From: Caedimonas varicaedens
GTDB taxonomy: Bacteria > Pseudomonadota > Alphaproteobacteria > Caedimonadales > Caedimonadaceae
DNA length: 20,586 bases
Reading direction: 5' to 3'
NCBI GenBank assembly: GCA_001192655.1
Contig: BBVC01000042.1
Location: forward strand, 1 to 20,586
The notes below the pieces were generated by a model. It saw nothing but the letters and a program-made list of their open reading frames with translations, was not told where the DNA came from and did not search any database. Shown here in pieces: positions 2,923 through 20,586 of the stretch (position 1 is the first letter of the stretch; each line of letters begins with the position of its first letter). A program made the translations under genes and the position numbers.

Positions 2923-3071
2923 TATTCCTCCCCCCCTTTTTTAGCCGTATTTTAACAGCATTTTTATATAAATTTATGTAAATTTAAGTTTAATCCTATA
3001 AAAGTTAATTCATTATTAACCTGAAGTCCATAAGATAATCTTAGACTATAACTAAAAATGATTTTCCAGGC
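2923..3071. promoter_or_regulatory. Divergent intergenic control region between the tolC-like gene and the ABC-MFP operon (promoters inferred, not mapped)
   Basis: A 149-bp, very AT-rich spacer between two divergently oriented start codons. It contains the tolC Shine-Dalgarno. No specific -35/-10 boxes or operator can be assigned with confidence by eye. Confidence 0.35.
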
Positions 3072-5315: not shown

Positions 5316-5321
5316 GTTTAG

Positions 5322-6680
5322 ATGTTGTCTTATTTCAAAAAAATATTTCCCTCTGCTCAGGAACAAGAAAATACCGATTTTATGCCCCCTCATATTGCTG
5401 CCCACCATCGAAAACCTGAACGTAAGGTATCAATCCTTATGGGAGCAGTTATTCTATTCTGCATTACTTTTATTATTTGGGCGAACTGGGCTGAATTGGA
5501 TGAAATTGCGCGTGGGGAAGGCAAAATTATTCCTTCCAGCTCTGTACAGAAAATTAGCAATCTTGAAGGAGGAATTATTCAGGAACTTCTTGTTAAGGAA
5601 GGACAAATTGTTCAAAAAGATCAAATTTTAATGCGTATTGACCCAACGATTGCGGACGCGCACTTAAAAGAAGGTCGCGATAATTATTACCGATATCTTG
5701 CCGATGTAGAGCGATTGAAGTCCCTGACAGAGGGTCGAGACTTTATCGTTCCTGAAGAAGTCGAGAAGAATGCCCCTCAAGCTGCCGATGAAGCTCGTGA
5801 ACGCTATAAAGCACGCAAAGAGCGCTTAGCCAATGAAATTAATATCTCACAAAAAGAGCTGGATCAAAAAACTCAAGAATTGCATGAGCTTCAGGCACGG
5901 GAAATCGAAGCGGCAAAAGCCACAGATCTCTCTCAACAAGAGCTAGCCATTCAAAAACCTCTTGTTGAACGTGGATTAGGCGCCAAAATGGATCTTTTAA
6001 AAATTCAACGGGATTTAAATGACGCTCAGGGACGTCTTAATTCGACGAAAATTAATATCCAGAAAGCTGAAGCTGCGGTCAATCAGGCTTCTGAAAAACT
6101 CAAGCAAGTTCCTGTTATTTTCCAAAACGAAGATTATACGGAATTAAGAGAGGCTAGCAATAAACTGGCGCAGGCGCAGGGAAGTTTTACCTCACAGGAA
6201 AATATCGCGTCAAGAACAGAAATTCGCTCGCCTGTTAAGGGAATTGTAAAACAGATCCTGCTGACCACGATTGGAGGCATTATAAGACCAGGAGAAGACA
6301 TCATGGAAATTGTTCCCCTGGATGATAGTCTTCTGGTTGAGGTCAATATTAAACCCTCTGACATTGCTTTTCTGCATCCGGGTGAACCCGCTATGCTCAA
6401 AATCTCAGCCTATGATTATTCCATTTATGGAGGGCTCCACGCCGAGCTTGTGGACATCAGCCCGGATACTGTTGTCGATGAAAAAGACCAACGACATCAA
6501 AGTTATTATAAAGTCAAGCTCAGGACAACCAATCTGAAATTCACAAAATCCGGGGATGAAAAACCGCTGATTCCCGGTATGGTTGTGACGGCTGATATCA
6601 AGACGGGAAAAAAAACAGTCATGCACTATCTGTTAAAACCAATCATTAAAGCAAAAGACGAAGCCTTAACAGAACGATAA
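5322..6680 (+). CDS. HlyD-family type I secretion periplasmic adaptor (membrane fusion protein)
   Basis: 452 aa with a single N-terminal TM segment (VSILMGAVILFCITFIIWANWA) and a long coiled-coil middle (ELDQKTQELHELQAREIEAAK...). The C-terminal barrel motifs 'IRSPVKGIVKQI', 'GMVVTADIKTGKKTVMHYLLKPI' are typical of HlyD/LssD-type MFPs. The start codon lies 6 nt after the ABC stop. Confidence 0.9.
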   Translation: MLSYFKKIFPSAQEQENTDFMPPHIAAHHRKPERKVSILMGAVILFCITFIIWANWAELDEIARGEGKIIPSSSVQKISNLEGGIIQELLVKEGQIVQKDQILMRIDPTIADAHLKEGRDNYYRYLADVERLKSLTEGRDFIVPEEVEKNAPQAADEARERYKARKERLANEINISQKELDQKTQELHELQAREIEAAKATDLSQQELAIQKPLVERGLGAKMDLLKIQRDLNDAQGRLNSTKINIQKAEAAVNQASEKLKQVPVIFQNEDYTELREASNKLAQAQGSFTSQENIASRTEIRSPVKGIVKQILLTTIGGIIRPGEDIMEIVPLDDSLLVEVNIKPSDIAFLHPGEPAMLKISAYDYSIYGGLHAELVDISPDTVVDEKDQRHQSYYKVKLRTTNLKFTKSGDEKPLIPGMVVTADIKTGKKTVMHYLLKPIIKAKDEALTER

Positions 6681-7154: not shown

Positions 7155-9095
7155 TTAGTTTCTTGCATGAGTAGTACCATGTTTTGATTCTAAAGAAGAT
7201 TTCAAGCCAATATTCCAAACTTCAAGACAGAAAAATAACCAAACCTTCTTTAAATCATCCACTGTTCCATTATTCAGTGATTTTAGAATAAAATCCTTTG
7301 TAACCCTACAATCAAAGTATTCATAAATAAATGCGCTGTCACTCATAAAAACATCATGACAAAAAGCTTTAAGATCTGTTTTTAACCATTGAATAAATGG
7401 CACCTCGAATCCCTTTTTAGGGGCGCTGGCAATGTTGGCTGGAAGATATCTCTTGGCAAGCTGTCTTAGTAGAACTTTGCTATTAAGTGCAGTAGCTTTC
7501 AAATTATCAGGAAGAGATAGCCCAAATCTTACAAGCCTTTTATCTAAGAATGGAGATCTTACCTCCAAAGAATTTGCCATAGAGGCAATGTCCATTTTTA
7601 CAAGTAAGTCATAAGGCAGCTCGCATATCAAATCCATAAACATGCTTTTTTCTAATATACTAGTGAAGCTCTTGGCATGTAAAAGCTCATTCAGAAACGC
7701 AGAATTTCCGTCTAGTCTGGCTCCAAATTTAAAAAAATCACTCCTATTTAAACCTTGACCACGTTGGTATAAGAAAGCATCTAGTTCATCAAGCGATAAT
7801 ACCTCTGCTGCTCTTTTGATGAAATCGAGTTTTGATCTATAGAGGTTATTACTAGGCAAAAATGATTTGATAACTTTTCCAGATAACATGAGATTGCGTT
7901 TTGAGAAATATTTTTTAACGCGATCTTGGGCTGCTGATAGCTGATAACGCCTGTAACCCCCAAAAACTTCATCACCTCCATCACCAACAAGTGCCACTTT
8001 TAAAAAAGTAGAGGTATGCTTTGAGACATAATAAGATGGAATGGCAGAGGCATCTGCAAAAGGTTCTCCATACATTGAAAGTATGTTCACTATATTGTCT
8101 TTTAGCTCACTCTGATTAATTATGATTTTGTTAATTTTAGATCCATACTTTTCTGCAACTTCACTTGCGAGATTGATTTCATCTAAATCTTCTGCATCAG
8201 AAGAAAAAGAAAAGGCTTGAATACCGGGTTTAAGTTGAGCAGCAAGAGCCATAATAAGTCCACTATCGATACCCCCGGAGAGAAACACACCAACGTCAAC
8301 ATCAGAACGAAGTCTTAATTTTATGGAATCTCTGAGTAAAACATCTAACTCTTCAAGAGCTTCATTTGAAGTGGTAATTTGTTTACTTTGAGGGATTTGC
8401 AGTTTATCATATGGTGTCAATGTGACGTTCAGGTTTCCATCCACACATAGAGAGTACCCTGGCGGAAGCTCTTTTATTTCCTCATATATAGTGTTTGTTC
8501 CCGGGATGTAACCAAGTGACATAAAATCAGAAATACTTTCTGATTTTATGTTTAATTTATTTAAGCCTATAAAGTGGGCAAGAGGTTTTATTTCAGATGA
8601 GAATGTAAATGCTCCATCTATTAATGAATAGTATAGTGGTTTTTCGCCAAGTAAGTCTCTGCTCAAAAATAGATTTTTTCTTTTATTATCCCATAATGCA
8701 AAAGCAAACATACCATTCAAGTGGATGGGAGTATCATTTCCTTTTTCTAGATATAGTTTATAAATAACTTCAGTATCACTTTTAGATAAGAAAGAATATT
8801 TACTCAAATAATCATTGTGAAGCTCAAGGTAATTATAGATTTCTCCATTATAAGTCAAAACATTCCCATATTTATTGTCGATAAATGGTTGATGACCTTT
8901 ATCAGTAACATCTATAATCGATAAGCGTCGATGACCAAGAATTAATCCATGTTCTGCAGATGACCATATGCCAGCTCCATCAGGTCCTCGATGAGCAAGT
9001 AAGTTTAAAGCGCAGTTGACTTTTTCTTTGTGCTCATGAATAGACTGATGGTTTCCTTTCAAGTATGGTGATAAAACTCCAAATATACCGCACAT
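7155..9095 (-). CDS. Asparagine synthase (glutamine-hydrolysing) family amidotransferase, glycan-locus type (WbpS/WbtH-like)
   Basis: 646 aa starting 'MCGIFGV', the Ntn glutaminase nucleophile Cys2. The PP-loop ATP-pyrophosphatase motif 'VFLSGGIDSGLI' is present. A GGAAGG Shine-Dalgarno lies upstream. It is the last gene of the minus-strand glycan operon. Confidence 0.88.
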   Translation of the reverse strand: MCGIFGVLSPYLKGNHQSIHEHKEKVNCALNLLAHRGPDGAGIWSSAEHGLILGHRRLSIIDVTDKGHQPFIDNKYGNVLTYNGEIYNYLELHNDYLSKYSFLSKSDTEVIYKLYLEKGNDTPIHLNGMFAFALWDNKRKNLFLSRDLLGEKPLYYSLIDGAFTFSSEIKPLAHFIGLNKLNIKSESISDFMSLGYIPGTNTIYEEIKELPPGYSLCVDGNLNVTLTPYDKLQIPQSKQITTSNEALEELDVLLRDSIKLRLRSDVDVGVFLSGGIDSGLIMALAAQLKPGIQAFSFSSDAEDLDEINLASEVAEKYGSKINKIIINQSELKDNIVNILSMYGEPFADASAIPSYYVSKHTSTFLKVALVGDGGDEVFGGYRRYQLSAAQDRVKKYFSKRNLMLSGKVIKSFLPSNNLYRSKLDFIKRAAEVLSLDELDAFLYQRGQGLNRSDFFKFGARLDGNSAFLNELLHAKSFTSILEKSMFMDLICELPYDLLVKMDIASMANSLEVRSPFLDKRLVRFGLSLPDNLKATALNSKVLLRQLAKRYLPANIASAPKKGFEVPFIQWLKTDLKAFCHDVFMSDSAFIYEYFDCRVTKDFILKSLNNGTVDDLKKVWLFFCLEVWNIGLKSSLESKHGTTHARN

Positions 9096-9148
9096 CTAAT
9101 AAAGCCTTCCAATCTAAAAAGGTGATACCTAAAATTTGATTCGGAGAG

Positions 9149-10411
9149 TTAATCTTTATGGATCAGCATGCGCTTCTCGATTTGCGATGCACGCATGCTT
9201 GCTCTTTTGAAGTGAAATTCACTGTAGGAATTAGCTGACACCAAAGAAGCTTTTCTATAATAGTTTAACGCCATATTTACCTTTCCCATTTCTTCATAGC
9301 ATCGACCCATAAAGTAAAGAACTGGTTTAGGTTTAAATGATTCAGACTTATCAATTTGAATCAAAGTTTGAAATTGTTCAAGTGCCTCCGAGTACTTTTT
9401 TGTTTTATATAAGGAAAAACCATAATAATATAGTGAATACAACTTATGACGGTAGTTTATAGATGATCTAGAGAGCCTTTTGTAAATCTTTTCCGCTTCA
9501 TTATAGTCTTCGATAAGCTGATGATGTCTGGCTTTTAAAAGATCATAAGATTCATTTAATTCTTTGTTCGTGAGATTATCCTGATTACTGAATAAGTTAA
9601 GAATGTTTACAGAAATAAATCCGGTAGTTTTTGGAGACTCAGTCTCAATATAGCTTGTCTCCTTGTAATGAGAAATTTTTCCATCCAAATAAGATAAGTA
9701 AAGCATTTGAATAAAACGTGCATACCATTTTCCTAAATAATTTAATAAAAATCTATTAATGTCTGCAATAAAAAAACAAATACCAGATGTTGGATCAACA
9801 TCTTCTCTAATTTCATATTTATATATGTAATCAACCGGTGTATATAACTTATTCATATAATTAAAAATTTCATTTTTGTCAGGGAATGATTTTTGTATGG
9901 ACAGTATTCCAAGTCTTTTTATTAAGAAATCTTTATCATTTTTTATGTGAGACAAGAGTTCTTCATATGTCAATAATTCACCCAGATCATTAACGTAAAC
10001 AATTCCTCCAAAAGGCTCAAAAACAATCCACTTTCCATCTATATTGATTTCAAGAAAGGCATGAAGCTTAGAATGTACTAATCTAGATTTGAGACCTGCT
10101 TTTTTTAGAAGTTTTGCAGCTATTAACGATTGAACACTGCACAAACCATTGCCATGCAGGAGTGCAGCCAACTCATTTGTGGGAGCATGTGAGCAGCCAT
10201 CTGAGGTTATATTCTCTGCTATATACTCAGCAAGGTTTTCAATGGTTTCTCTGTCATTCCGACCTTTTATATATTTATTTGCAATGCAAGTAAAAACAAC
10301 ATCTTCGTACACATAATTAAGGTATTTAACATAAATAAATTTGAACAAAATTATAAAAGACAATAAAAGTGGAATAAGAAGATAGATTTTTTTCATTTTA
10401 AGTAATCTCAT
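9149..10411 (-). CDS. Membrane-anchored transglutaminase-like cysteine-protease-fold protein with C-terminal TPR repeats (function unknown)
   Basis: 420 aa with an N-terminal signal-anchor helix (KKIYLLIPLLLSFIILFKFIYV). The core 'GNGLCSVQSLIAAKLLKKAGLKSRLVHSKLHAFLEINIDGKWIVFEPFGG' fits the transglutaminase-like template C..(A/S)..L...LR..G(I/L).(A/S)R.V......HAW.E......W...DP. Putative catalytic residues are Cys91 (10139-10141), His117 (10061-10063) and Glu132 (10016-10018). The C-terminal ~100 aa have TPR-like periodicity (YNEAEKIYKRL..., YSEALEQFQTLIQID, GRCYEEMGKVNMALNYYRKA). The start is either 10411 or the ATG at 10396, which is 1 nt after the GT4 stop. Confidence 0.6.
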   Translation of the reverse strand: MRLLKMKKIYLLIPLLLSFIILFKFIYVKYLNYVYEDVVFTCIANKYIKGRNDRETIENLAEYIAENITSDGCSHAPTNELAALLHGNGLCSVQSLIAAKLLKKAGLKSRLVHSKLHAFLEINIDGKWIVFEPFGGIVYVNDLGELLTYEELLSHIKNDKDFLIKRLGILSIQKSFPDKNEIFNYMNKLYTPVDYIYKYEIREDVDPTSGICFFIADINRFLLNYLGKWYARFIQMLYLSYLDGKISHYKETSYIETESPKTTGFISVNILNLFSNQDNLTNKELNESYDLLKARHHQLIEDYNEAEKIYKRLSRSSINYRHKLYSLYYYGFSLYKTKKYSEALEQFQTLIQIDKSESFKPKPVLYFMGRCYEEMGKVNMALNYYRKASLVSANSYSEFHFKRASMRASQIEKRMLIHKD

Positions 10412-11555
10412 ATAATTTTTTTTGTATATCTCTTATGAGGTTCTTATGAGAAAATTTCTTTTCAGCGAGAATCCTTGATTTTTGACCAAAAATTTCTCTT
10501 TTTTTATCGTCCAAAGCTAAATCTGAAATTGCATTGGCAAGCGCATCTGCATCACCAGGGGGAACAAGGTAACCATTCACACCAGACTCTACAACTTCCC
10601 TACAACCAATAACATTTGTCGTAACAACAGGTTTTGAAAATGCTAAAGCTTCGATAAGACTTCTTGGAACTCCTTCTCTAACTTTAGAGGGGAGAACTAC
10701 AATCGATGCCATTTTAAAAAAAGTTTTAATGTTAGAATGAAAATCAGACTCCCAAATTAAATTGCTGGGTATTAATTTTTTCATTTCTTCCACATCAACA
10801 CTGTCATATGTTCCCTCATCTAGAGGGGAAACCATTAAAAACCGCCATCCTTTTAAGTTCTTACATTTCCTGGAAGCCTCAATGAACTCTAGCAGCCCTT
10901 TAGTGAGAATCAACCGTGCTGTTACCATGAGAACAATTTTTTCTCCAGGGATTATTCCCAACTTATTAGTTATAAATTTTATCTTTTCTTCAGTGACATT
11001 ATCTTCCTGAAACTCTTCTAAATTTATTCCACTCCCATAAAGAAGGACAGTTTTATCCGGACTAACAAGCCCCTTCGAAACAAAATCTGCCATATCATCA
11101 GGATTTTGAAACCATACTTTAGTGTTTAATCTTAGAGACAGCCTATAGAGAAAAGATACAATAGGTGTCAGTATTTTTTTCTTGAAAGATGTTGTTTCTT
11201 GAAAGATATATCCAAGCCCGGAAATCAAACTCACTATCTTTGGTACGCCACACAAATAAGCTGCCAAACCACCATAAATGTTAGGTTTGATCGTTATATT
11301 ATGAACAATATCATATTTATTTCTTTTGAGAAAAAAAACTAATCTAAGGAAAAGTAATAAATCCTGCAAAGGAGAGATAAATCTAGAAAACTGAATGGTA
11401 TGAACCTTACATCCGAGAGCCATGATTTGAGAAACATAATCTCCTGGCGGAACAATAACAGTAATGTCATAACCCCTACTAATAAGTCCAGAAATCAGAT
11501 CTTTTCTGAAATGAAACATTGAAAACGCTTCATTTCCAATCAGCAAAATTTTCAT
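10398..11555 (-). CDS. GT4-family (GT-B fold, retaining) glycosyltransferase
   Basis: 385 aa. The N-terminal 'MKILLIGNEA' resembles Glyco_trans_4. The C-terminal E-x7-E region is 'EGVPRSLIEALAFSKPVVTTNVIGCREVVESGVNGYLVPPGD'. Its ATG directly abuts the upstream dehydrogenase stop (TAAATG), and its 3' end overlaps the next ORF. Confidence 0.88.
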   Translation of the reverse strand: MKILLIGNEAFSMFHFRKDLISGLISRGYDITVIVPPGDYVSQIMALGCKVHTIQFSRFISPLQDLLLFLRLVFFLKRNKYDIVHNITIKPNIYGGLAAYLCGVPKIVSLISGLGYIFQETTSFKKKILTPIVSFLYRLSLRLNTKVWFQNPDDMADFVSKGLVSPDKTVLLYGSGINLEEFQEDNVTEEKIKFITNKLGIIPGEKIVLMVTARLILTKGLLEFIEASRKCKNLKGWRFLMVSPLDEGTYDSVDVEEMKKLIPSNLIWESDFHSNIKTFFKMASIVVLPSKVREGVPRSLIEALAFSKPVVTTNVIGCREVVESGVNGYLVPPGDADALANAISDLALDDKKREIFGQKSRILAEKKFSHKNLIRDIQKKLYEIT

Positions 11556-12851
11556 TTATAACCTAACATACTCTATATTTTCGTTCATAAACGAGCTTTT
11601 ATTAAACATCCCTTTAACGTCAAAAATTAGAGAACCACCACCTTTTAAGGATTTTGTAAAATAATTCGGACCAAGTTCCCTATAGTAGTCGTGGCAAACC
11701 GCAACAATAGCAACATCCAAATCGACCATTTCATCAATCTTGTTCATTGAACGGCCGTATTCTTCCGCAACTGAATCATCATAAACTAATGGATCATGGA
11801 TCAATGTATTTATATTTAATGACTGAAAGAATTTATATATGTCTTCGACTTTACTATTTCTAATATCAGGACAGTTTTCTTTAAAACCAAGACCAAATAT
11901 CCCAATATTTAATGAAAAAAAGTTTTTCTTTTTTTCTATTAACTTTTTAATAATAATTTCACCAATATGAGTACCCATACTATCATTAGTCTCGCGGCCA
12001 CAAAGAATCACGTGGGGCTTCACCCCTAAGAGTGTGGCTTTATAAGTAAGATAATATGGATCTATTCCGATACAATGGCCACCTACAAGACCTGGGATAA
12101 AATTCAGAAAATTCCATTTTGTACTTGCGGCTTCCAGAACTTCAAGAGTATCTATCCCCATTTTTTCGAAAATGATAGATAATTCATTTACGAAGGCTAT
12201 ATTGATATCTCTTTGTGAATTTTCAATAACTTTTGCCGCTTCTGCAACCTTTATAGAAGAGGCTTTATGTATGCCCGCCTCAACTACCGTTGAATACACA
12301 TTGGAAAGAACCTCAAGGGACTTATCTGTTTGAGCAGATACTATTTTTTTGATTGTCTTCAGTGTGTGCTTTTTATCTCCAGGATTAATCCTTTCTGGAG
12401 AGTAGCCTACAAAGAAATCCTTGCCCGCTACCAAATGTGACTTGCTTTCAAGTATTGGGATGCAATAATCTTCAGTTACACCAGGATAAACCGTAGATTC
12501 ATAAACGACTATATCGTTTTCACTAAGAAGCTCACCCACAATGGTTGATGCCGACTCTAAAAATCCCAAATCTGGATTATTTGTACGGTCAAGTGGAGTA
12601 GGAACAGTAACTATATAAAAGTTAACATCCTTTAATTCTTTGGCACTATTTGTATATTTGAGAGATGATTTTTGAAGATCAGCCTGAGAAATTTCATGGG
12701 TTCTATCATGCCCATTTTTTAGTTCTGTAATACGCCTTTCATTTAAATCAAATCCAATCACTGGAAAATGTTCTGATAAAGCATGGGCTAATGGTAATCC
12801 AACATAGCCTAATCCAATAACGCCTATTCTTATTTGGGTATTATCTATCAT
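11556..12851 (-). CDS. Nucleotide-sugar 6-dehydrogenase, TviB/WbpO/Cap5O-like (UDP-N-acetylhexosamine dehydrogenase type)
   Basis: 431 aa. The N-terminal Rossmann motif 'IGVIGLGYVGLPLAHAL...VIGFDLNERRITELKNGHD' closely resembles Vi-antigen TviB 'IAIIGLGYVGLPLA...VVGFDVNKKRILELKNGVD' (from memory). The catalytic Cys motif is 'GGHCIGIDPYYL'. The UDPG_MGDP_dh C-terminal region is present. Confidence 0.88.
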   Translation of the reverse strand: MIDNTQIRIGVIGLGYVGLPLAHALSEHFPVIGFDLNERRITELKNGHDRTHEISQADLQKSSLKYTNSAKELKDVNFYIVTVPTPLDRTNNPDLGFLESASTIVGELLSENDIVVYESTVYPGVTEDYCIPILESKSHLVAGKDFFVGYSPERINPGDKKHTLKTIKKIVSAQTDKSLEVLSNVYSTVVEAGIHKASSIKVAEAAKVIENSQRDINIAFVNELSIIFEKMGIDTLEVLEAASTKWNFLNFIPGLVGGHCIGIDPYYLTYKATLLGVKPHVILCGRETNDSMGTHIGEIIIKKLIEKKKNFFSLNIGIFGLGFKENCPDIRNSKVEDIYKFFQSLNINTLIHDPLVYDDSVAEEYGRSMNKIDEMVDLDVAIVAVCHDYYRELGPNYFTKSLKGGGSLIFDVKGMFNKSSFMNENIEYVRL

Positions 12852-12865
12852 GACTGTAAACCTTA

Positions 12866-13490
12866 TTAACTTAATAAATATTTTGCTCTATCAATAACTT
12901 GTGCAACTGAAGGATAGTAACCCTTCTCCAGGAAAGATGATGTGGGCACAAGGCAATCTAGCAGTGTAACTCTCTGTGGTTTTGACTTCAATAATGAGAG
13001 ATCTAACCTTTCAACAACGGAGGCGATAACTTCTCCTGCCATACCACATAGTTTCCATCCGCCATTAAGACATAGCAAACGTCCTGTACTTAATGATAAC
13101 TACCTCTACTGAAATTCCATCTTGAGTAAGAGCTTTTGCAGCTTTTTCAAAAAAAGTAGAATATCCCAATGGGAACATCATTTTCATGTGACAAAAATTA
13201 AGTTTTAACAGCCTCTGTAGATGTACCCCCAAAGAACTTGGGTTCAAATCGATAGTCTTTGCCCACACATAGCGCTGAACCATACGATCGATTTGCTTTT
13301 GAGAGATATCATCTCCTGCAAGTTCTGTGGCTTGAGAATAATTTGTTTCAACTTAACCTCAACGATGTGTCACAACTTCAAAGGCGGCAAGAGGAGGAAC
13401 CAATTCTCCCCATACGAGCCTCCGTACGAGATCCTCAATCTGCGCCCATTTATAAGAGAACAACAACGTTTTGTAAAGTTTTTTCTTTAG
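12866..13490 (-). pseudogene. Decayed paralogue of the ThDP-dependent E1 alpha/beta pair: alpha C-terminal remnant fused to beta C-terminal remnant, with frameshifts and a large internal deletion
   Basis: ORF 12866-13078 (…NGGWKLCGMAGEVIASVVERLDLSLLKSKPQRVTLLDCLVPTSSFLEKGYYP…) aligns ungapped with the C-terminus of the intact E1 beta at 17862-18917 (…DGSWKNCGIAGEVIASVVERIDPRILKSKPSRITLPDSPAPTSKVLEDIYYP…). I count 34 of 70 identical residues. ORF 13065-13283 contains 'GYSTFFEKAAKALTQDGISVEVVII', matching beta 'GSSYSSYLAMQAAKELEKQRIFAEVIDL'. Hand translation of the minus strand at 13284-13490 gives 'SYKWAQIEDLVRRL' and 'LAGDDISQKQIDRM'. These resemble E1 alpha C-terminal 'IKAWKKRDPVQRL' and 'LEKNEIMSQKEFQQHL'. 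The pieces lie in different frames and are interrupted by stops, and roughly the first 200 aa of beta are absent. Confidence 0.7.
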
Positions 13491-13514: not shown

Positions 13515-13781
13515 CTACTTTCTCTCCTGAATGTCCTGTCTCATTTTATGTTGATGAGTGATGATTTTGTGTTTCAGGATTTCAATTTCAAGCTGCCACA
13601 GTAAAACCAGTAGAAAAAAAGCCGCGTAGGCGCCTGTCATCAAAAAAAGCGGAAGTATCATACTTTCATGAACAGCACTTCCCCCGACACGTAGAAAGCT
13701 GGCAGGCTGATGAAGCGTCGTCCACCAGGTCACAGACCATTTGATTACGGGAAGATTCAAAGCGCCAATCATCACCGTTTA
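13515..13781 (-). pseudogene. ccmC: 3' fragment of the heme exporter / cytochrome c maturation gene ccmC
   Basis: 'IGALNLPVIKWSVTWWTTLHQPASF' matches the conserved CcmC 'VG..N.PII.FSVEWWNTLHQ' motif, and is followed by the final TM helix. Only ~88 C-terminal codons are present, whereas full-length CcmC is about 240-260 aa. An in-frame stop lies immediately upstream (~13782-13784), and no CcmC-like sequence is visible further upstream. Confidence 0.7.
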
Positions 13782-14151: not shown

Positions 14152-14895
14152 ATGAAAAGAATTTTAGATCTTATCTTTTCTATTCTGGGCTTAATCATTC
14201 TTAGTCCGCTACTTTTGATCTGTATGTCCTTAATATGGCTACAAGATTATCATTCCCCTTTTTATTTAGGAGAAAGAGTTGGCAAGAATGGTAAGCGTTT
14301 TAAAATGATCAAATTAAGATCAATGGTTCAGGATGCAGATAAAACGGGTGTGGATTCAACCTCCGCAACAGATGTTAGGATTACGCCTTTAGGATCTTTT
14401 ATTCGGCGCTTCAAGTTAGATGAAATTCCCCAACTTTTGAATGTTATAAAAGGAGAAATGAGTCTGGTCGGGCCAAGGCCCAATGTAAGGCGTGAAGTTG
14501 ATTTATATACTGATGAAGAACTCAAACTTCTACGCGTAAATCCAGGCATTAGTGATATTGCTTCGATCGTTTTTTCTGATGAAGGAGAAATCCTCCAAAG
14601 TGAGGAGGATCCCGATATTTCCTATAATCAACTCATCCGTCCATGGAAAAGCAGATTAGGGCTATTTTATATTTCGCATCAAAATTTTTTGCTTGATTTA
14701 AAGGTTATTTGGATTACTGTCATTGCAATTGTTTCTCGAAAGGCTGCCTTAAAAAAAGTTGTTTCTTTGTTGTCTAACCTGAATGCACCAGATGATTTAA
14801 AGAAAATAAGCCTGCGTGAAGAAAAATTAGTAGCCACAGCTCCTCCAGGGACAAATGTTATTGTAAAGTCTCGCAGCACTGTTTCGAAAGGCTAG
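14152..14895 (+). CDS. Small monotopic phosphoglycosyl transferase (bacterial sugar transferase, PglC/WbaP-C-terminal type): initiating undecaprenyl-phosphate sugar-1-phosphate transferase
   Basis: 247 aa. The N-terminal re-entrant helix is 'KRILDLIFSILGLIILSPLLLICMSLIWL'. 'FKMIKLRSMV' is present, and the catalytic region 'LDEIPQLLNVIKGEMSLVGPRP' carries the Asp-Glu dyad. It is the first gene of the plus-strand operon. Confidence 0.88.
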   Translation: MKRILDLIFSILGLIILSPLLLICMSLIWLQDYHSPFYLGERVGKNGKRFKMIKLRSMVQDADKTGVDSTSATDVRITPLGSFIRRFKLDEIPQLLNVIKGEMSLVGPRPNVRREVDLYTDEELKLLRVNPGISDIASIVFSDEGEILQSEEDPDISYNQLIRPWKSRLGLFYISHQNFLLDLKVIWITVIAIVSRKAALKKVVSLLSNLNAPDDLKKISLREEKLVATAPPGTNVIVKSRSTVSKG

Positions 14896-14908: not shown

Positions 14909-15679
14909 GTGGACTATAAAGATGTTACGGAATTATCTGGTGAAGAGATCTCCCAAGAGCAACTACAACGGATTTGTAATCGATATTATTGGGCGGGAAG
15001 CTATTGTCAAGGCAAAGACACACTTGAAGTTGCTTGTGGAACGGGGCCAGGGCTAGGATATCTGTCACGAATTTCCCAGAGGCTTGTGGCAGGAGACATT
15101 TCTGAGGAAATTTTAAGTATTGCTCGTCTTCATTATGAAGAACGAGTTGATATTCAGCAGTTTGATGCTTCAAGTATGCCTTTTCCCAATCAATCTTTTG
15201 ATGTTGTGCTTATCTTTGAAGCTATTTATTATTTGCCAAATGTGGAACAATTTATGAAAGAGTGTAGGAGAATTCTGCGTCCTGCAGGTATCCTCTTAAT
15301 TGTGACAGCCAATAAGGATCTCTATGATTTTAATCCTAGTCCTTATAGCTATGGCTATTATGGCGTCCTCGAATTAGAGAGATTACTGAGCACCCATAAT
15401 TTCGAAGCGACTTTTTACGGTAGCACATCTGTAAAAACAACCTCATTTAAACAAAAGATTTTTAGACCAATGAAAAAAATAGCTTCTGCTCTCAATCTTA
15501 TTCCCCAAACAATGAAGAGAAAATCATGTCTTAAAAGACTTGTGTTTGGAAAATTAGTTCCTATGCCTTATGAAATTGATAGCTCAACAAGAAATTACGA
15601 GCCACCCGTGTCCCTAGTTTCAGACCATCCTGACAGGGTTCATAAAGTTATTTTTTGCGCAGCTCATATGAAAAACTGA
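14909..15679 (+). CDS. Class I SAM-dependent methyltransferase
   Basis: 256 aa with a GTG start. Motif I is 'LEVACGTGPGLGYL', post-I is 'LVAGDISEEIL', and later motifs are 'FDVVLIFEAIYYL' and 'LRPAGILLIV'. It starts 13 nt after the transferase stop. Confidence 0.8.
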   Translation: MDYKDVTELSGEEISQEQLQRICNRYYWAGSYCQGKDTLEVACGTGPGLGYLSRISQRLVAGDISEEILSIARLHYEERVDIQQFDASSMPFPNQSFDVVLIFEAIYYLPNVEQFMKECRRILRPAGILLIVTANKDLYDFNPSPYSYGYYGVLELERLLSTHNFEATFYGSTSVKTTSFKQKIFRPMKKIASALNLIPQTMKRKSCLKRLVFGKLVPMPYEIDSSTRNYEPPVSLVSDHPDRVHKVIFCAAHMKN

Positions 15680-15695
15680 TAGAAAGGATAAATTT

Positions 15696-16823
15696 ATGTC
15701 AAAGGCTCGAATAATTCCTTTTTTTAATTATCCAGCTTTGTTTTATCAGCAAGAAGAAAAATTTATTTCAATTTTTAAAGATGTTTGTTCAAGGGGTGCC
15801 TATATTCTGCAAAAAGATTTAGTAGAGTTTGAGGAGAATTTGAAAAAATTTCTTGATGTGAAATACGTCTTTGGTGTAGCTGATGGTACAAATGCAATTA
15901 TTTTAGGATTAAATGCCGCAGGGATCGGCCCTGGTGATGAAGTGATTGTTCCTTCACACACATATATAGCTTCAGCAGCAGCGGTTGCGCTTGTGGGTGC
16001 CAAACCCGTATTGTGTGATATTGGGGAAGACAATCTGATTGATCCTGCATCTGTCAAAGAAAAACTTACCCAAAAAACAAAAGCGATTATGCCTGTTCAT
16101 GTAAACGGACGGACGTGCAAAATGGATGATTTGCGGGATATTGCTCAACAGCATAATCTCATGATTGTTGAAGATGCTGCTCAGGCTCTGGGATCGAAAT
16201 ATAAGGGGAAAGGCGCAGGGACATTTGGGAAATTTGGAACTTATAGTTTTTACCCTGCCAAAGTTTTAGGATGTTTTGGTGATGGGGGAGCAATTGTAAC
16301 AAACGATGAAGAGATTGCCAGAAAGGTCTCCCTGTTAAGAGATCACGGGCGCGATGAAAGAGGTCGTGTTATTACGTGGGGAACTAATTCTCGTCTTGAT
16401 AATTTACAGGCTGCTATTTTGAATTTTAAATTACAGTCTTATAATGAAGATATTAAGAGACGTCGTGAAATCGCCAAAAAATATGACGAGTCATTAAAAA
16501 GCATAAAAGAACTTACGTTGCCTCCAAGCCCTAATGAAAACCAGGCTCATTTTGACATTTACCAAAACTATGAGTTAGCGGCCGATCGTCGCGATGACTT
16601 AAAAGCTTATTTGCAAGAAAAAGGGATCTCGACAATTATTCAATGGGCTGGTGTTCCTGTTCATAAATTTATAGAGTTGGGTTTTAATGAAATTTTGCCT
16701 AAAACAGAAAATTTCTTCGAAAGATGCCTGATGCTGCCTATGAATGTTTCTTTAAGTGATGACGATATCAATTATATTTGCGATTCTATACATTTTTTTT
16801 ATTCGCATAACAAAATTAATTAA
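15696..16823 (+). CDS. DegT/DnrJ/EryC1/StrS-family PLP-dependent sugar aminotransferase
   Basis: 375 aa with 'GVADGTNAIILGL', 'MIVEDAAQALGSKYKGK' and the PLP-lysine region 'YSFYPAKVLGCFGDGGAIVTND'. The length is typical of the family. Confidence 0.88.
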   Translation: MSKARIIPFFNYPALFYQQEEKFISIFKDVCSRGAYILQKDLVEFEENLKKFLDVKYVFGVADGTNAIILGLNAAGIGPGDEVIVPSHTYIASAAAVALVGAKPVLCDIGEDNLIDPASVKEKLTQKTKAIMPVHVNGRTCKMDDLRDIAQQHNLMIVEDAAQALGSKYKGKGAGTFGKFGTYSFYPAKVLGCFGDGGAIVTNDEEIARKVSLLRDHGRDERGRVITWGTNSRLDNLQAAILNFKLQSYNEDIKRRREIAKKYDESLKSIKELTLPPSPNENQAHFDIYQNYELAADRRDDLKAYLQEKGISTIIQWAGVPVHKFIELGFNEILPKTENFFERCLMLPMNVSLSDDDINYICDSIHFFYSHNKIN

Positions 16824-16837
16824 TTTTTAAAAAGTAA

Positions 16838-17890
16838 GTGACGAGAATGCTTAATCTTGGAGACTTGGCTAATCCAAAAAAATTTATAGACCCTGTTCAT
16901 ATTGATCGAGCAGATAGTGAATTTCTCATACAGGCTCTTTGTATGATGATGCTAATTCGAGAAACAGAACAATGTATCGCTGAGCTTGTGAAATCAGGGA
17001 TTGCCAATTGTCCGTGCCATTTAGCCGTTGGACAAGAGGCTATTTCTGTCGGGGTGGCAAGGCATTTGAACAAGCAGGACAGAGTGTTTGGCAATCATCG
17101 CTCTCATGCACAATATCTTGCTCTCGGTGGAGATCTGGAAGAGTTACTAGCTGAAATTCTTGGAAAAGTAACAGGGTGTTCGAAAGGCATGGGTGGATCG
17201 ATGCACCTTTATGCTGGTGAACAGGGTTTCCATGGGTCTGTTCCTATTGTAGCAGGGACAATTCCTCTGGCTGTTGGCGCTGCATTGGCGGCAAAGTTTG
17301 ACCAACAGGGTTCTGTGGGGGTTGCTTTTTTTGGAGATGGCGCTTGTGAAGAAGGTGTTTTACATGAGAGCCTTAATATAAGTTCCATTATGAAGCTTCC
17401 TATGATTTTTGTTGTAGAAAATAATCTTTACTCAAGTCATCTGGACATCCAACAACGCCAACCGTTTGATTCTACATCCCGCTTTGCAGAAGCCCATGGT
17501 ATTCCTTATGAAGTTGTAGAGGGAAACGATGTTGGAGTTGTTGAAAAGGCTGCTGCAAAATTGATTCAAAGAGCTAGAGATAATAAAGGCCCTGGATTCC
17601 TTGAGGCGGTAACTTTTCGATGGTTAGGTCACGTAGGATCAAATGAAGATATTGATGTGGGTGTACGCAGAAGCCTGGAAGAAATTAAAGCCTGGAAGAA
17701 AAGAGACCCTGTGCAACGACTGTTTTTGGCTCTTGAAAAAAATGAAATAATGTCACAGAAAGAATTTCAACAGCATCTTCAGGACATTAAAAAAAGAGTA
17801 AGTCAGGCAAAAGAAAACGCTCTTCAAGCGCCGTGGCCAAAATTAGAGAATTTGGAAAGTTATGTCTATGCGTCTACTGGATCCGAATAA
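16838..17890 (+). CDS. ThDP-dependent 2-oxoacid dehydrogenase E1 component, alpha subunit (AcoA/PdhA-like), orphan in a glycan locus
   Basis: 350 aa with 'HLAVGQEAISVGV', 'RSHAQYLALGGDL', 'GKVTGCSKGMGGSMHL'. The canonical ThDP motif GDG-x26-NN ('GDGACEEGVLHESLNISSIMKLPMIFVVENN') lies at 17333-17425. The start may be GTG at 16838 or ATG at 16847. Confidence 0.85.
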   Translation: MTRMLNLGDLANPKKFIDPVHIDRADSEFLIQALCMMMLIRETEQCIAELVKSGIANCPCHLAVGQEAISVGVARHLNKQDRVFGNHRSHAQYLALGGDLEELLAEILGKVTGCSKGMGGSMHLYAGEQGFHGSVPIVAGTIPLAVGAALAAKFDQQGSVGVAFFGDGACEEGVLHESLNISSIMKLPMIFVVENNLYSSHLDIQQRQPFDSTSRFAEAHGIPYEVVEGNDVGVVEKAAAKLIQRARDNKGPGFLEAVTFRWLGHVGSNEDIDVGVRRSLEEIKAWKKRDPVQRLFLALEKNEIMSQKEFQQHLQDIKKRVSQAKENALQAPWPKLENLESYVYASTGSE

Positions 17891-18917
17891 GCAGAATATT
17901 AATGGTCAACAATTAACTTCCTATTCAGAAGCTATTCAAATTGCATTTGAATATCTTTTGGAGAAATATCCCGAAGTTTTTATTTTAGGACAAGGAGTTT
18001 GGAGTCCTTGGTATGTTGGGACAACTATGAAGGGTTTAGATAAGAAGTTTGGAAAAGAGAGAGTTATTGACTCTCCTGTCTCTGAATGGGCATGTACAGG
18101 GTTAGGTGTTGGTGCTTCTCTTTTTGGCTACAAGCCTATTATTATACATCCCAGAATGGATTTTATGGTTCTTGCAAGTGATCCGCTTGTTAACCAAGCT
18201 GCAAAATGGTCCTATATGCTGGGGGGGCAAGCAAATCCTCAAGTAACGATAAGAGCTATTATAAACAGGGGAGGAGAGCAGGGAGCACAACATTCTCAAG
18301 CCTTACATTCCTGGTATGCTCATATTCCGGGGTTAAGGGTCGTTATGCCTTCAACTCCCAAAGATGCGCGCGATCTCTTAATTTCTTCGGTTTTGTGCAA
18401 GGATCCAGTGATATATATCGACGATAGGTGGCTTTATGACCAGAAAGAAATGCTTTCACCTATTGAAGAATTAGATTTAAGCAAAGAAAAGCCTCAGATT
18501 TTAAAAGAAGGAAAAGACATCACCATAGTTGGATCCAGTTACAGTTCTTACTTGGCGATGCAAGCCGCAAAAGAATTAGAAAAACAGAGGATCTTTGCTG
18601 AAGTAATAGATTTAAGGATTCTTAACCCGATAGATTATAACATTATTGTTAAATCAGTAGAGAAAACAAATAGATTAATGGTTGTTGATGGAAGTTGGAA
18701 AAATTGTGGAATAGCCGGAGAAGTCATTGCAAGCGTCGTTGAAAGAATCGATCCTCGGATTTTAAAGTCAAAACCATCACGGATTACGTTACCGGATTCT
18801 CCCGCTCCAACGAGTAAGGTTTTGGAAGATATATATTATCCAAAAATCGATCGTATTGTCCAAAATATTGAGTTAATAGTAAAAACACCGTCAAAATTAT
18901 CAAATAATATTTTTTAG
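17862..18917 (+). CDS. ThDP-dependent 2-oxoacid dehydrogenase E1 component, beta subunit (AcoB/PdhB-like; transketolase pyrimidine-binding plus C-terminal domains)
   Basis: 351 aa with 'RVIDSPVSEWACTGLGVGASLFGYKPII', 'NQAAKWSYMLGG', 'GAQHSQALHSWYAHIPGLRVVMPSTPKDARDLL' and C-terminal 'GIAGEVIASVVE'. It overlaps the alpha stop by 29 nt, which suggests translational coupling. No E2 (lipoyl/acyltransferase) or E3 gene is in the window. Confidence 0.85.
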   Translation: MSMRLLDPNKQNINGQQLTSYSEAIQIAFEYLLEKYPEVFILGQGVWSPWYVGTTMKGLDKKFGKERVIDSPVSEWACTGLGVGASLFGYKPIIIHPRMDFMVLASDPLVNQAAKWSYMLGGQANPQVTIRAIINRGGEQGAQHSQALHSWYAHIPGLRVVMPSTPKDARDLLISSVLCKDPVIYIDDRWLYDQKEMLSPIEELDLSKEKPQILKEGKDITIVGSSYSSYLAMQAAKELEKQRIFAEVIDLRILNPIDYNIIVKSVEKTNRLMVVDGSWKNCGIAGEVIASVVERIDPRILKSKPSRITLPDSPAPTSKVLEDIYYPKIDRIVQNIELIVKTPSKLSNNIF

Positions 18918-19266
18918 AGAAAGTCCTGACGCTAAAAAATGAATAACTTTAATTTGCATAATTTTTTCTAATTTCGTAAGAAGAAAAAAATATTTTTTCA
19001 ATTATAAGTTAAAAAATGGGTATCTATGCTAAATTTAATCAATAAAAAAATTGAATCTATTAAATTTTCAGTATTTTCATGCGTGCCGTTTCCATATCTC
19101 TATAAAATGGCTTTTTTTATTTTATTACCGATGACTGTTTTTGCTCCACAAGGAATCACTGTTCTCACTCTTATACTTGCAGTCATTTTTTTTCTCGATA
19201 TGTATACTTCTTTCTCTTTAAAATACATATTTCAGAAAAATAACAAGCTCTTGCTTCTGATAAGTA

Positions 19267-19298
19267 TTTTTTTAATTTTTCTTTTTTTACTTCTTTTT
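19267..19298 (+). repeat. Cluster of homopolymeric T tracts at the frameshift site (T7 at 19267-19273, T5 at 19276-19280, T7 at 19282-19288, T5 at 19294-19298)
   Basis: Counted directly from the sequence 'tatttttttaatttttctttttttacttctttttgg'. Confidence 0.9.
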
Positions 19299-20128
19299 GG
19301 TCAATTGCTAAAGAAGAAAGCTTCAAAGAAGTACTAAGAATTACAATTCTGTTCCTGGCAGGGTATTCTGTTTTCAGGGGATTGCAGACAACTTCATATC
19401 AAACAGAGATTATCAAAAGCCTTTGGACAGGATGGGTTGTGACCGTTATTCTACTCTTCATTGAAGCAATAACAGAAGGAATTATATTAAGTGTTATGAA
19501 ATTCTCTTATGTTGAAATGCACAAATATAACAAATCCACTTCTGTGATGGTTCTTTTTTTAATTCCAGTATTTCTTTTAAAGAAAAAATATTTAACACTT
19601 GAGCAAAAAGAATCCCTCTTTTTAGGAAAAAAATTAGAAACAGCTATTTTTATTCTTTTTATTGTTACTATTTTTATTTTAGTTAGTGGAACTTCCAAAC
19701 TGGCATTGATGGGCGGGATAATGCTACCATTTGCTCTTTATATTCTGCCTCAGAAAGTGAGGAAAGGGTTCTTACAAATCATTGTCTGCTTTTATTTTAT
19801 AGGTATTTTTATCATCCCAAATATTTACGCTATTCCTACTATAAAACAATACACTTTCAAGAATGTTGGATCTACTAGTTTTTATGATCGTATAAGTATC
19901 TGGACAAATGTACGTAACATAGTTCTTAATAAATCCGACAGTGTTAAAGGCTCTACTCGTCGTACTTTTTTTGGATTTGGCCTAGGAAGCTCAAAGGTAG
20001 AAGTTTTTTCAAAGCAAAGATGTGCATGGGAAATACCCCTCTCTTCTCTTTTATCAGATAGCTCGAAACGAAATAGGATACGACCGTACTTAGGAAAATA
20101 TTTAAGACATAAAATGAACATAAAGCAG

Positions 20129-20167
20129 AATACTCAACCGACAAATACTCAACCGACAAATACTCAA
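20129..20167 (+). repeat. In-frame 15-bp tandem repeat (AATACTCAACCGACA x2 plus a 9-nt partial third unit) encoding NTQPT-NTQPT-NTQ
   Basis: Units at 20129-20143 and 20144-20158 are identical, and a partial unit lies at 20159-20167. The repeat sits inside the large loop that precedes the HPHNN motif of the ligase-family protein. Confidence 0.9.
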
Positions 20168-20586
20168 AACAATTCCTTAGCACTGAAGTTTGGGCAATGC
20201 AATAATAGTGGTATTAAAGCTCCTATTTACAAATATCCTCTTGCTATTACTGAAGGTCTCCCTCTTCATCCTCATAATAATGTCTTACAAATTACCTTAG
20301 AATTAGGGTTTGTGGGGATTTTTCTCTTCTTTTTAATGATTCAATTATGTATCCAGGGAATTTGGAAATTAAATTCAAACCCTTGTTATCTGTGCATGTT
20401 ATCAGGAACACTCTTAAGCTTTTTGATCATTAGTTCTATCAGTTATGGCATTTGGCAAAGTTGGTGGGTATGCACCCTATGGCTTGTTCTTTCTGTTTCG
20501 CAACGTATTCGAAGCTGAGAATCTCGAATAAGGGTAAAGCCCCTCCCATAATTTAGACCACTAGCCTAGGAGGATTTAAGTATACA

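Follow-up and report, generated by a model that had tools for sequence, protein, structure and literature searches.

Enzymes of the E1 alpha/beta type (alpha-KADH2), which use thiamine diphosphate (ThDP), put pyruvate-derived C2 acetyl branches on C3 or C4 keto-sugars (PMC12247030, PMC4753412, PMC4425429, PMC4802897, PMC10338323). The kibdelomycin enzyme KbDH-alpha/beta joins pyruvate to ketone sugar analogues in vitro (PMC12247030); genetic support exists for AviB1/AviB2 in avilamycin and for Pau11/Pau12 (= Plm8/Plm9) in paulomycin (PMC4753412, PMC4425429, PMC10338323), and a role has been proposed for EvdU5/EvdS3 in everninomicin (PMC4802897). The branch ketone is then either reduced, by the aldo-keto reductase Pau7 in paulomycin and also in avilamycin, or transaminated, as in kibdelomycin (PMC4753412, PMC12247030). 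A 2025 review assigns branching in lipopolysaccharide (LPS) to YerE-like enzymes and places alpha-KADH2 enzymes mainly in natural products (PMC12247030). Here we analyse an E1 alpha/beta gene pair in a glycan locus on a 20,586-bp contig of Caedimonas varicaedens (BBVC01000042.1); the window is this entire contig, and our statements on E2, E3 and dehydratase genes of the host are limited to it. C. varicaedens is a Holosporales endosymbiont of Paramecium. An initial annotation of this DNA regarded E1-type action on keto-sugars as a poorly characterised chemistry; it is less obscure than that, as such action is already known in actinomycete antibiotic pathways and, for KbDH-alpha/beta, in vitro (PMC12247030, PMC4425429).

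Our preferred reading, to which we assign a probability of roughly 0.55, is that E1 alpha/beta acetylates C4 of a uridine diphosphate (UDP)-4-keto-6-deoxy-N-acetylhexosamine (HexNAc), that a DegT-family aminotransferase aminates the branch, that a methyltransferase N-methylates it and that a phosphoglycosyltransferase (PGT) loads the sugar onto undecaprenyl phosphate. The genes concerned, together with the gene that follows them, are these:

14152..14895, plus strand: small monotopic PGT, PglC-like (PF02397, E 9.6e-52)
14909..15679, plus strand: class I S-adenosylmethionine (SAM) methyltransferase, MT1 (PF08241, E 7.8e-23)
15696..16823, plus strand: DegT-family aminotransferase dependent on pyridoxal phosphate (PF01041, E 1.2e-99)
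16847..17890 (alternative GTG start 16838), plus strand: E1 alpha subunit, 347 amino acids (aa), ThDP/Mg-binding (PF00676, E 2.6e-61)
17862..18917, plus strand: E1 beta subunit, 351 aa, pyrimidine-binding and C-terminal domains (PF02779, PF02780)
19026..20518, plus strand: Wzy_C-type gene (O-antigen ligase, polymerase or O-oligosaccharyltransferase-like; weak PF04932 match)

Both E1 open reading frames (ORFs) lie where the initial annotation had placed them, with the expected domains. The PGT, MT1, DegT and E1 alpha genes follow one another at gaps of 13, 16 and 23 nt, and the 29-nt overlap first described between alpha and beta is borne out by the coordinates. A 14-nt gap after the aminotransferase had also been given, which holds only with GTG 16838 as the alpha start and becomes 23 nt with the likelier ATG 16847. 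We prefer the ATG because the purine-rich GACGAGA precedes it and because databases hold the 347-aa product (GAO98323.1); an exact look-up of the 350-aa GTG form returned no match. For beta, GGAAAG stands 3 nt 5' of ATG 17862. The description of the pair as the distal genes of an operon stands insofar as it closes the tight run, but another gene on the same strand, of the Wzy_C type, lies 108 nt downstream.

Both subunits appear catalytically intact, as first noted, motif and Pfam checks agreeing on this point. The E1_dh match of alpha covers profile positions 3-299 of 300, with the ThDP/Mg motif GDG-x26-NN (GDGACEEG...ENN) at residue 163 of the 347-aa form, and beta carries complete Transket_pyr (6.3e-26) and Transketolase_C (2.2e-27) domains. 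This combination of E1_dh with GDG-NN and transketolase-like domains is that of the heterotetrameric ThDP-dependent E1 enzymes (alpha-KADH2 superfamily). The closest solved structures are human PDHA1 for alpha (8.4e-49) and Geobacillus E1 beta for beta (8.2e-52), and alignment to solved E1s shows that the cofactor-activating beta Glu (the Glu of 'AES/SEW' in the alignment to Geobacillus E1 beta), beta His128 (Geobacillus numbering) and alpha His263 (human numbering) are all kept.

The pair belongs to a clade apart from dehydrogenase E1s. Alpha homologues number thousands; among the best 120, which come from Bradyrhizobium, Silicimonas, Aliihoeflea, Rickettsiales and many metagenomes, identity is 54% or higher. 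From genomes and metagenomes we gathered 88 non-redundant clade loci, with 871 kb of flanking DNA in total. Clade alphas are 49-97% identical to the window alpha, whereas E2-linked E1 alphas and human PDHA1 reach at most 36%, and in a neighbour-joining tree 88 of 88 terminals are monophyletic with no other sequence inside the clade. Both window subunits also score below the NCBIfam cut-offs for pyruvate dehydrogenase (PDH): alpha at 284 bits for TIGR03182 (cut-off 393.85), and beta at 249 bits for NF006667 (321) and 239 bits for NF008854 (454). Placed against E2-linked PDH and acetoin E1s, as the initial annotation had envisaged, the clade is thus distinct by tree, by identity and by cut-off.

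Core catalytic residues are preserved in the clade despite a set of invariant substitutions relative to E2-linked E1s. In alpha (human numbering), F61 is replaced by P, Y89 by H, G136 by P, N171/Q172 by E/E, M200/G201 by S/H and S264 by V, and three residues, DVG, are inserted at the loop A equivalent; in beta, the N-terminal segment is rebuilt, with GQGVWSPWYVGTTM in place of GEDVGVNGGVFRAT, and HPR stands where E2-linked E1s have IQF. Several of these positions fall in what we take to be phosphorylation loops A and B of human E1, walling the active-site channel. The signature positions would fit an altered acceptor.

No homologue of E2, AcoC or E3 and no lipoyl carrier was detected by homology search anywhere in the window, in agreement with the initial annotation; the sole 'lipoyl-like' Pfam match there is the HlyD membrane-fusion protein. 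For the relatives, the probes were E2 and AcoC from classical loci (Pfam-verified) and E. coli Lpd. With these probes the absence extends to the clade: E2, AcoC or E3 occurred in 0 of the 88 clade loci, across their 871 kb of flanks, against positive matches in 17 distant E1 loci. The AcoC probe, taken from locus L016, matched L016 and L025 and no clade locus. In a contig sharing more than 90% identity with the window, beta is followed downstream by Wzy_C, the remnant of a transposase and the type I secretion genes seen here, again without E2 or E3.

Instead, the clade keeps company with genes for sugar synthesis. Among the 35 of 88 loci flanked by 3.5 kb or more on each side, a PglC-like transferase occurs in 33 and DegT in 31; an aldo-keto reductase occurs in 3, such that 34 of the 35 have exactly one of DegT or reductase and none has both. 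The window-type methyltransferase is found in 21 of these loci and a Polysacc_synt_2 (PglF/WbpM-type) 4,6-dehydratase in 13 (the latter also in L045 and L132-L134); the 20.6-kb window has no homologue of the 4,6-dehydratase or the aldo-keto reductase. The commonest order is [methyltransferase]-DegT-E1 alpha-E1 beta-PGT[-dehydratase], usually with DegT directly 5' of E1 alpha, and the cassette recurs in genomes or metagenome-assembled genomes (MAGs) of Bradyrhizobium, Silicimonas/Oceaniradius, Micavibrio, Synechococcus, Chloroflexi and Rickettsiales. The linkage is reciprocal: when DegT homologues of 62-65% identity, picked regardless of E1, served as the starting point, every context contained methyltransferase, DegT, PGT, E1 alpha/beta and dehydratase, and homologues at 62-77% identity likewise adjoin E1 alpha/beta. 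The neighbourhood census that the initial annotation had put forward therefore ties this clade systematically to PglC-like and DegT genes. Other recurring neighbours are glycosyltransferases, UDP-N-acetylglucosamine (GlcNAc) 2-epimerase, Wzx, Wza-like exporters and AsnB-like amidotransferases; no acyltransferase, acyl carrier protein (ACP) or lipoyl protein recurs among the neighbours of clade loci.

The partner proteins in the window also retain their motifs. DegT has its catalytic Lys in SFYPAK at residue 184, and the PGT, whose solved relatives are WbaP and PglC, has a DE dyad at residue 90 and a PRP motif at residue 108. Structure matches did not indicate a substrate for the methyltransferase or for the aldo-keto reductase of relatives, the former matching only generic class I enzymes and the latter only generic aldo-keto reductase structures. 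In four relatives from Micavibrio and related MAGs (L009, 9935-12055; L010, 9917-12058; L081; L091) E1 alpha and beta are joined in a single ORF of about 700 aa; these would be handy single-chain versions for expression. Such fusions and the overlap of the two genes point, indirectly, to an alpha2-beta2 assembly. The reductase variant, E1 alpha-E1 beta-(second-family methyltransferase)-aldo-keto reductase-PGT without DegT, is seen in L048 (10001-13788) and in L011, L051, L057, L068, L069, L098, L103, L110 and L127. This variant predicts a sugar with a 1-hydroxyethyl branch, analogous to yersiniose or paulomycose.

The two cassette types provide a view of the order of steps. In the E1 tree, cassettes of the reductase type are interspersed with those of the DegT type, and E1 distances are nearly the same between partner types as within them (alpha, 0.474 versus 0.461-0.468; beta, 0.367 versus 0.357-0.360). 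The PGTs, in contrast, separate by cassette type, the nearest neighbour being also reductase-type for 8 of 8 reductase-type PGTs. E1 without and PGT with divergence by type fits an E1 acting on a common precursor and a PGT acting on a type-specific product. MT1 occurs in 27 of 51 DegT-type and 0 of 11 reductase-type cassettes (Fisher p = 0.0014), whereas a second methyltransferase family occurs in both. One locus, L007, consists of PGT-E1 alpha-E1 beta only, with neither DegT nor reductase, a gene set compatible with an acetyl-branched end product. From these patterns we infer that E1 acts first on a common precursor, that the carbonyl is then aminated or reduced, that the amine is N-methylated and that the finished sugar passes to a product-specific PGT.

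Taken together with the published chemistry, the following pathway can be proposed, in which donor, acceptor, branch position and order of steps are those that we infer from gene content and comparison. A PglF/WbpM-type 4,6-dehydratase, encoded beside the cassette in many relatives and not on this contig, would convert UDP-GlcNAc to UDP-4-keto-6-deoxy-HexNAc. E1 alpha/beta would decarboxylate pyruvate to the hydroxyethyl-ThDP carbanion and add it to the C4 ketone, giving a 4-C-acetyl branched sugar with a tertiary alcohol. DegT would presumably turn the branch ketone into a 1-aminoethyl group, or, in a minority of relatives, the aldo-keto reductase would give a 1-hydroxyethyl group instead; the methyltransferase would N-methylate the branch amine; and the PGT would transfer the sugar phosphate to undecaprenyl phosphate to form an undecaprenyl-diphosphate sugar, the glycan so begun being later handled by the Wzy_C-type protein. 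E1 alpha/beta would then be an E2-independent, heterotetramer-type ThDP enzyme devoted to one unusual sugar. The initial annotation had proposed a sugar-modifying carboligase or decarboxylase, and the distinct clade, the PGT/DegT linkage and the lack of E2/E3 support that interpretation.

Several considerations weigh against C-branching as set out here. There is no 4,6-dehydratase on the 20.6-kb contig, so the acceptor is taken from relatives, and the chemistry ascribed to the clade is read from its genes. Its likeness to AviB1, Pau11 and KbDH is one of gene content and published description. The nearest solved relatives of DegT are the ring 3-aminotransferases DesV, QdtB and WbpE, not a known side-chain transaminase; the more so for this reason, the branch may instead lie at C3, or the ring may be aminated after branching. 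To our knowledge, no bacterial surface glycan with a 1-aminoethyl-branched HexNAc has been described. On the side of the clade itself, the neighbour-joining trees are poorly resolved and the E2-linked outgroup is small (n = 16), and the metagenome scan used clade-specific peptide patterns, so that the identity gap may partly be a sampling effect.

The cassette resembles PglF/PglE/PglD/PglC with E1 alpha/beta at the place of PglD, no N-acetyltransferase is a constant member and DegT is mostly encoded directly 5' of E1 alpha, all of which would suit a pathway in which DegT, like PglE, starts by converting the ring ketone to a 4-amino sugar and E1, in place of a PglD-like acetyltransferase, then supplies an acyl group derived from a 2-oxo acid for modification at N (or O). 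Converting hydroxyethyl-ThDP to an acyl donor, however, needs an oxidant or carrier (lipoyl-E2, flavin or ACP), and none is conserved in the 88 loci; known E1-type acyl-transfer systems employ an E2-like lipoyl protein (QncN/L/M). Moreover, E1 sequences do not co-vary with the amine- or alcohol-forming partner, and L007 has E1 alpha/beta and PGT with no enzyme to create an amine or hydroxyl. We therefore regard acyl supply as unlikely, and between the N- and C-modification that the initial annotation had offered side by side, C-modification is favoured. The either-or pattern of DegT and reductase (34 of 35, never both) would also suit an aldehyde intermediate, in which case E1 would be a plain 2-oxo-acid decarboxylase and the aldehyde would be aminated by DegT or reduced by the aldo-keto reductase to a small amine or alcohol that is later joined to the glycan; the branch point between aminoethylphosphonate and hydroxyethylphosphonate offers a parallel. 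Such a non-sugar side group is made quite improbable by the use of sugar or inosose ketones among DegT-family enzymes, by the lack of a conserved ligase or transferase to attach it, by the frequent adjacency of a sugar 4,6-dehydratase and by the PGT, which is the most constant partner and tracks cassette type, pointing to a nucleotide-sugar product.

That the pair is an ordinary dehydrogenase E1 for pyruvate, acetoin or a branched-chain 2-oxo acid, found in a glycan locus by chance and served by E2 and E3 encoded elsewhere, is what its database names imply (GAO98323.1, 'acetoin:DCPIP oxidoreductase subunit alpha'; GAO98324.1, 'pyruvate dehydrogenase E1 beta'); no core catalytic residue is missing, and our view of the host is confined to one contig of the Caedimonas genome. 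Yet both subunits fall under the curated PDH cut-offs, identity to E2-linked E1s does not exceed 36%, E2/E3 genes accompany 0 of 88 loci against 17 positive controls, and the PGT/DegT linkage is conserved across phyla and reciprocal, which leaves this explanation with very little room. Bradyrhizobium, furthermore, has this pair besides its housekeeping PDH.

The routine annotation for genes of this clade is as a subunit of pyruvate or acetoin dehydrogenase, whereas the census places a large, phylogenetically broad clade in a portable sugar-making cassette. If keto-sugar C-branching is correct, E1-type branching would serve cell-surface glycans as well as antibiotic sugars, O-antigens, capsules or protein glycans would be expected to carry branched amino sugars of a new class at their reducing end, and a ketone-accepting ThDP carboligase for UDP-sugars with a matched side-chain transaminase would be of interest for biocatalysis. 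More tentatively, and at odds that we put somewhat short of even, a HexNAc-derived octose with a C4 branch (1-aminoethyl, N-methylated, or 1-hydroxyethyl), new to bacterial envelopes, may be the lipid-linked initiating residue in many Gram-negative lineages, including protist endosymbionts. Primary cell-envelope glycan synthesis would then have its first E1-type (alpha-KADH2) carboligase, one that uses a UDP-sugar. Carriers have been cultured (Bradyrhizobium sp. with WP_007612603.1 or WP_198287840.1, Oceaniradius with WP_424992289.1), which makes the proposal open to direct test.

The window also carries a divergent, minus-strand half of the glycan locus (7155..12851), whose families recur beside the cassette in other loci, and, next to it, the relic of a second cassette:

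7155-9095, minus strand: AsnB-like amidotransferase
9149-10411, minus strand: tetratricopeptide repeat (TPR)/transglutaminase-like protein
10398-11555, minus strand: GT4 glycosyltransferase
11556-12851, minus strand: TviB-like UDP-GlcNAc 6-dehydrogenase
12869..13352, minus strand: relic of a second cassette, comprising a methyltransferase N-terminus and an E1 beta C-terminus (tblastn, clade profiles)

The relic lies in a 1.3-kb 'intergenic' stretch directly upstream of the TviB-like gene. Its methyltransferase part (aa 2-31, 13343-13254) is 47% identical by tblastn (E 1e-7; clade profile 1.9e-9), and its beta part (aa 269-340, 13087-12872), which belongs to the last ~120 residues of an E1 beta to which the methyltransferase N-terminus is joined, is 51% identical to the live copy (E 5e-22; clade profile 5e-23). 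Since the beta fragment stands about equally far from every clade member, at about 50-54% identity, the relic is not a recent duplicate; it looks like the outcome of an internal deletion of DegT, E1 alpha and most of beta, and suggests cassette turnover. Relative to contigs about 98% identical over this stretch, one base pair is deleted from a T-run (~19275), which breaks the Wzy_C-type gene into ORFs 19026-19337 and 19382-20518. The gene is whole (506-507 aa) in contigs 92-98% identical to the window; the break marks a pseudogene, a tract prone to slippage or an error of assembly. In the minus-strand half, the gene with TPR and transglutaminase-core-like regions (9149-10411) overlaps the GT4 gene by 14 nt, inside the glycan operon.

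Elsewhere in the window, 1447-6680 holds a complete type I secretion set: a TolC-like OEP (minus strand), an ABC transporter with an N-terminal C39-like domain (plus) and HlyD (plus). The region has been rearranged, since the secretion set is inverted in a relative more than 90% identical, where it comes next after the Wzy_C gene and the remnant of a Y1 transposase. The 308-aa ORF at the contig start (2-928) matches no Pfam family and contains HETGH, a zinc-protease-like motif of the HExxH form; its product may be a secreted metalloprotease exported by the secretion system next to it. An ORF at 13515-13775 (minus strand), considered as a CcmC remnant, had no Pfam support. Promoter and terminator scans of the window gave no more sites than shuffled sequence, and Rfam and tRNA scans of it were empty.

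Outside the clade, a tblastn search of 72,556 plasmids found no clade member, the best matches being only 41-47% identical. The match on a Streptomyces griseofuscus plasmid neighbours a condensation-domain/ACP cluster with no sugar genes, that on an S. albogriseolus plasmid has no recognisable sugar context, and that on an Azospirillum plasmid belongs to a separate E1 family in a heptose-type locus, whose DegTs are 31-37% identical to the window DegT. This Azospirillum oryzae locus (L130; NZ_CP054615.1, 8953-13241) encodes an E1 alpha/beta pair, 41.6% identical to the window alpha, whose neighbours are a pair of DegT genes, one radical SAM gene and heptose genes of the GmhA/HldE type; more than one clade thus pairs E1 with DegT in glycan loci. 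Separately, a beta that clusters with the window beta at 90% identity has been deposited as 'Candidatus Rhabdochlamydia sp.' (MFI0478865.1), which reflects either a binning error or a recent transfer between protist and arthropod endosymbionts.

The initial annotation also pointed, as a matter to be checked, to E1 alpha/beta-like genes annotated in the O-antigen region of Coxiella burnetii. The genes concerned, CBU_0692, CBU_0693 and CBU_0686, lie in what we take to be the O-antigen region deleted in phase II strains. CBU_0692/CBU_0693 (and CBU_0686) are annotated as E1-type 'pyruvate dehydrogenases', horizontally acquired and read as part of fatty-acid/acetyl-CoA metabolism (PMC5423948); the suggestion holds at the level of annotation only. 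A published description of the Legionella pneumophila LPS locus and two of Coxiella LPS mention no E1, thiamine or transketolase genes. Full-text literature searches returned no description of a PGT-DegT-E1 cassette, with the primary KbDH/alpha-KADH2 cluster-mining study (Krug et al. 2024), which may already list Gram-negative cassettes, lying outside their coverage.

Compared with PdhAB, AcoAB and BkdA1A2, the window pair has the same fold, domain set, ThDP/Mg motif and catalytic Glu/His, but differs in its ~30-36% identity to them, in having no nearby E2, AcoC or E3 and in its clade-invariant changes around the cofactor and substrate loops. The pgl/bacillosamine cassette likewise builds a lipid-linked initiating sugar with a dehydratase, a DegT and a small PGT; in the clade, E1 alpha/beta, often with a methyltransferase, takes the place of the acetyltransferase PglD, and the window DegT is nearer to 3-aminotransferases than to PglE or PseC. 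YerE/YerF (yersiniose), ErwE and MygE also add, with ThDP, an acyl anion equivalent to a nucleotide 4-keto-sugar in an O-antigen pathway and then reduce the branch ketone (PMC4753412). YerE, however, is a single-chain, flavin-binding member of the acetolactate-synthase/decarboxylase superfamily that uses CDP-3,6-dideoxy-4-keto-glucose (CDP, cytidine diphosphate), whereas the window pair carries E1_dh and Transket_pyr/Transketolase_C on two chains, with a weak and partial TPP_enzyme_C match.

The actinomycete set of AviB1/AviB2, Pau11/Pau12, AlmDI/DII (aldgamycin), EvdU5/EvdS3 and KbDH shares with the present pair a two-gene E1 without E2/E3 in a sugar pathway. A dehydratase forming the keto-sugar is encoded nearby in those pathways, as it is in 13 of 35 relatives here though not on this contig, and the reduction (Pau7) or transamination (kibdelomycin) of the actinomycete branch ketone is mirrored by the alternation of reductase and DegT in the clade. 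The actinomycete enzymes belong to Gram-positive secondary-metabolite clusters and use thymidine diphosphate (dTDP)/nucleoside diphosphate (NDP)-deoxyhexoses or sugars that are already attached, whereas the clade is found in Proteobacteria, cyanobacteria and Chloroflexi, coupled to a PGT and beside UDP-GlcNAc-type dehydratases in cell-surface glycan loci. The apparent novelty here lies in the wide use of E1-type branching in a PGT-coupled surface-glycan cassette of Gram-negative and other bacteria, mostly paired with an aminotransferase.

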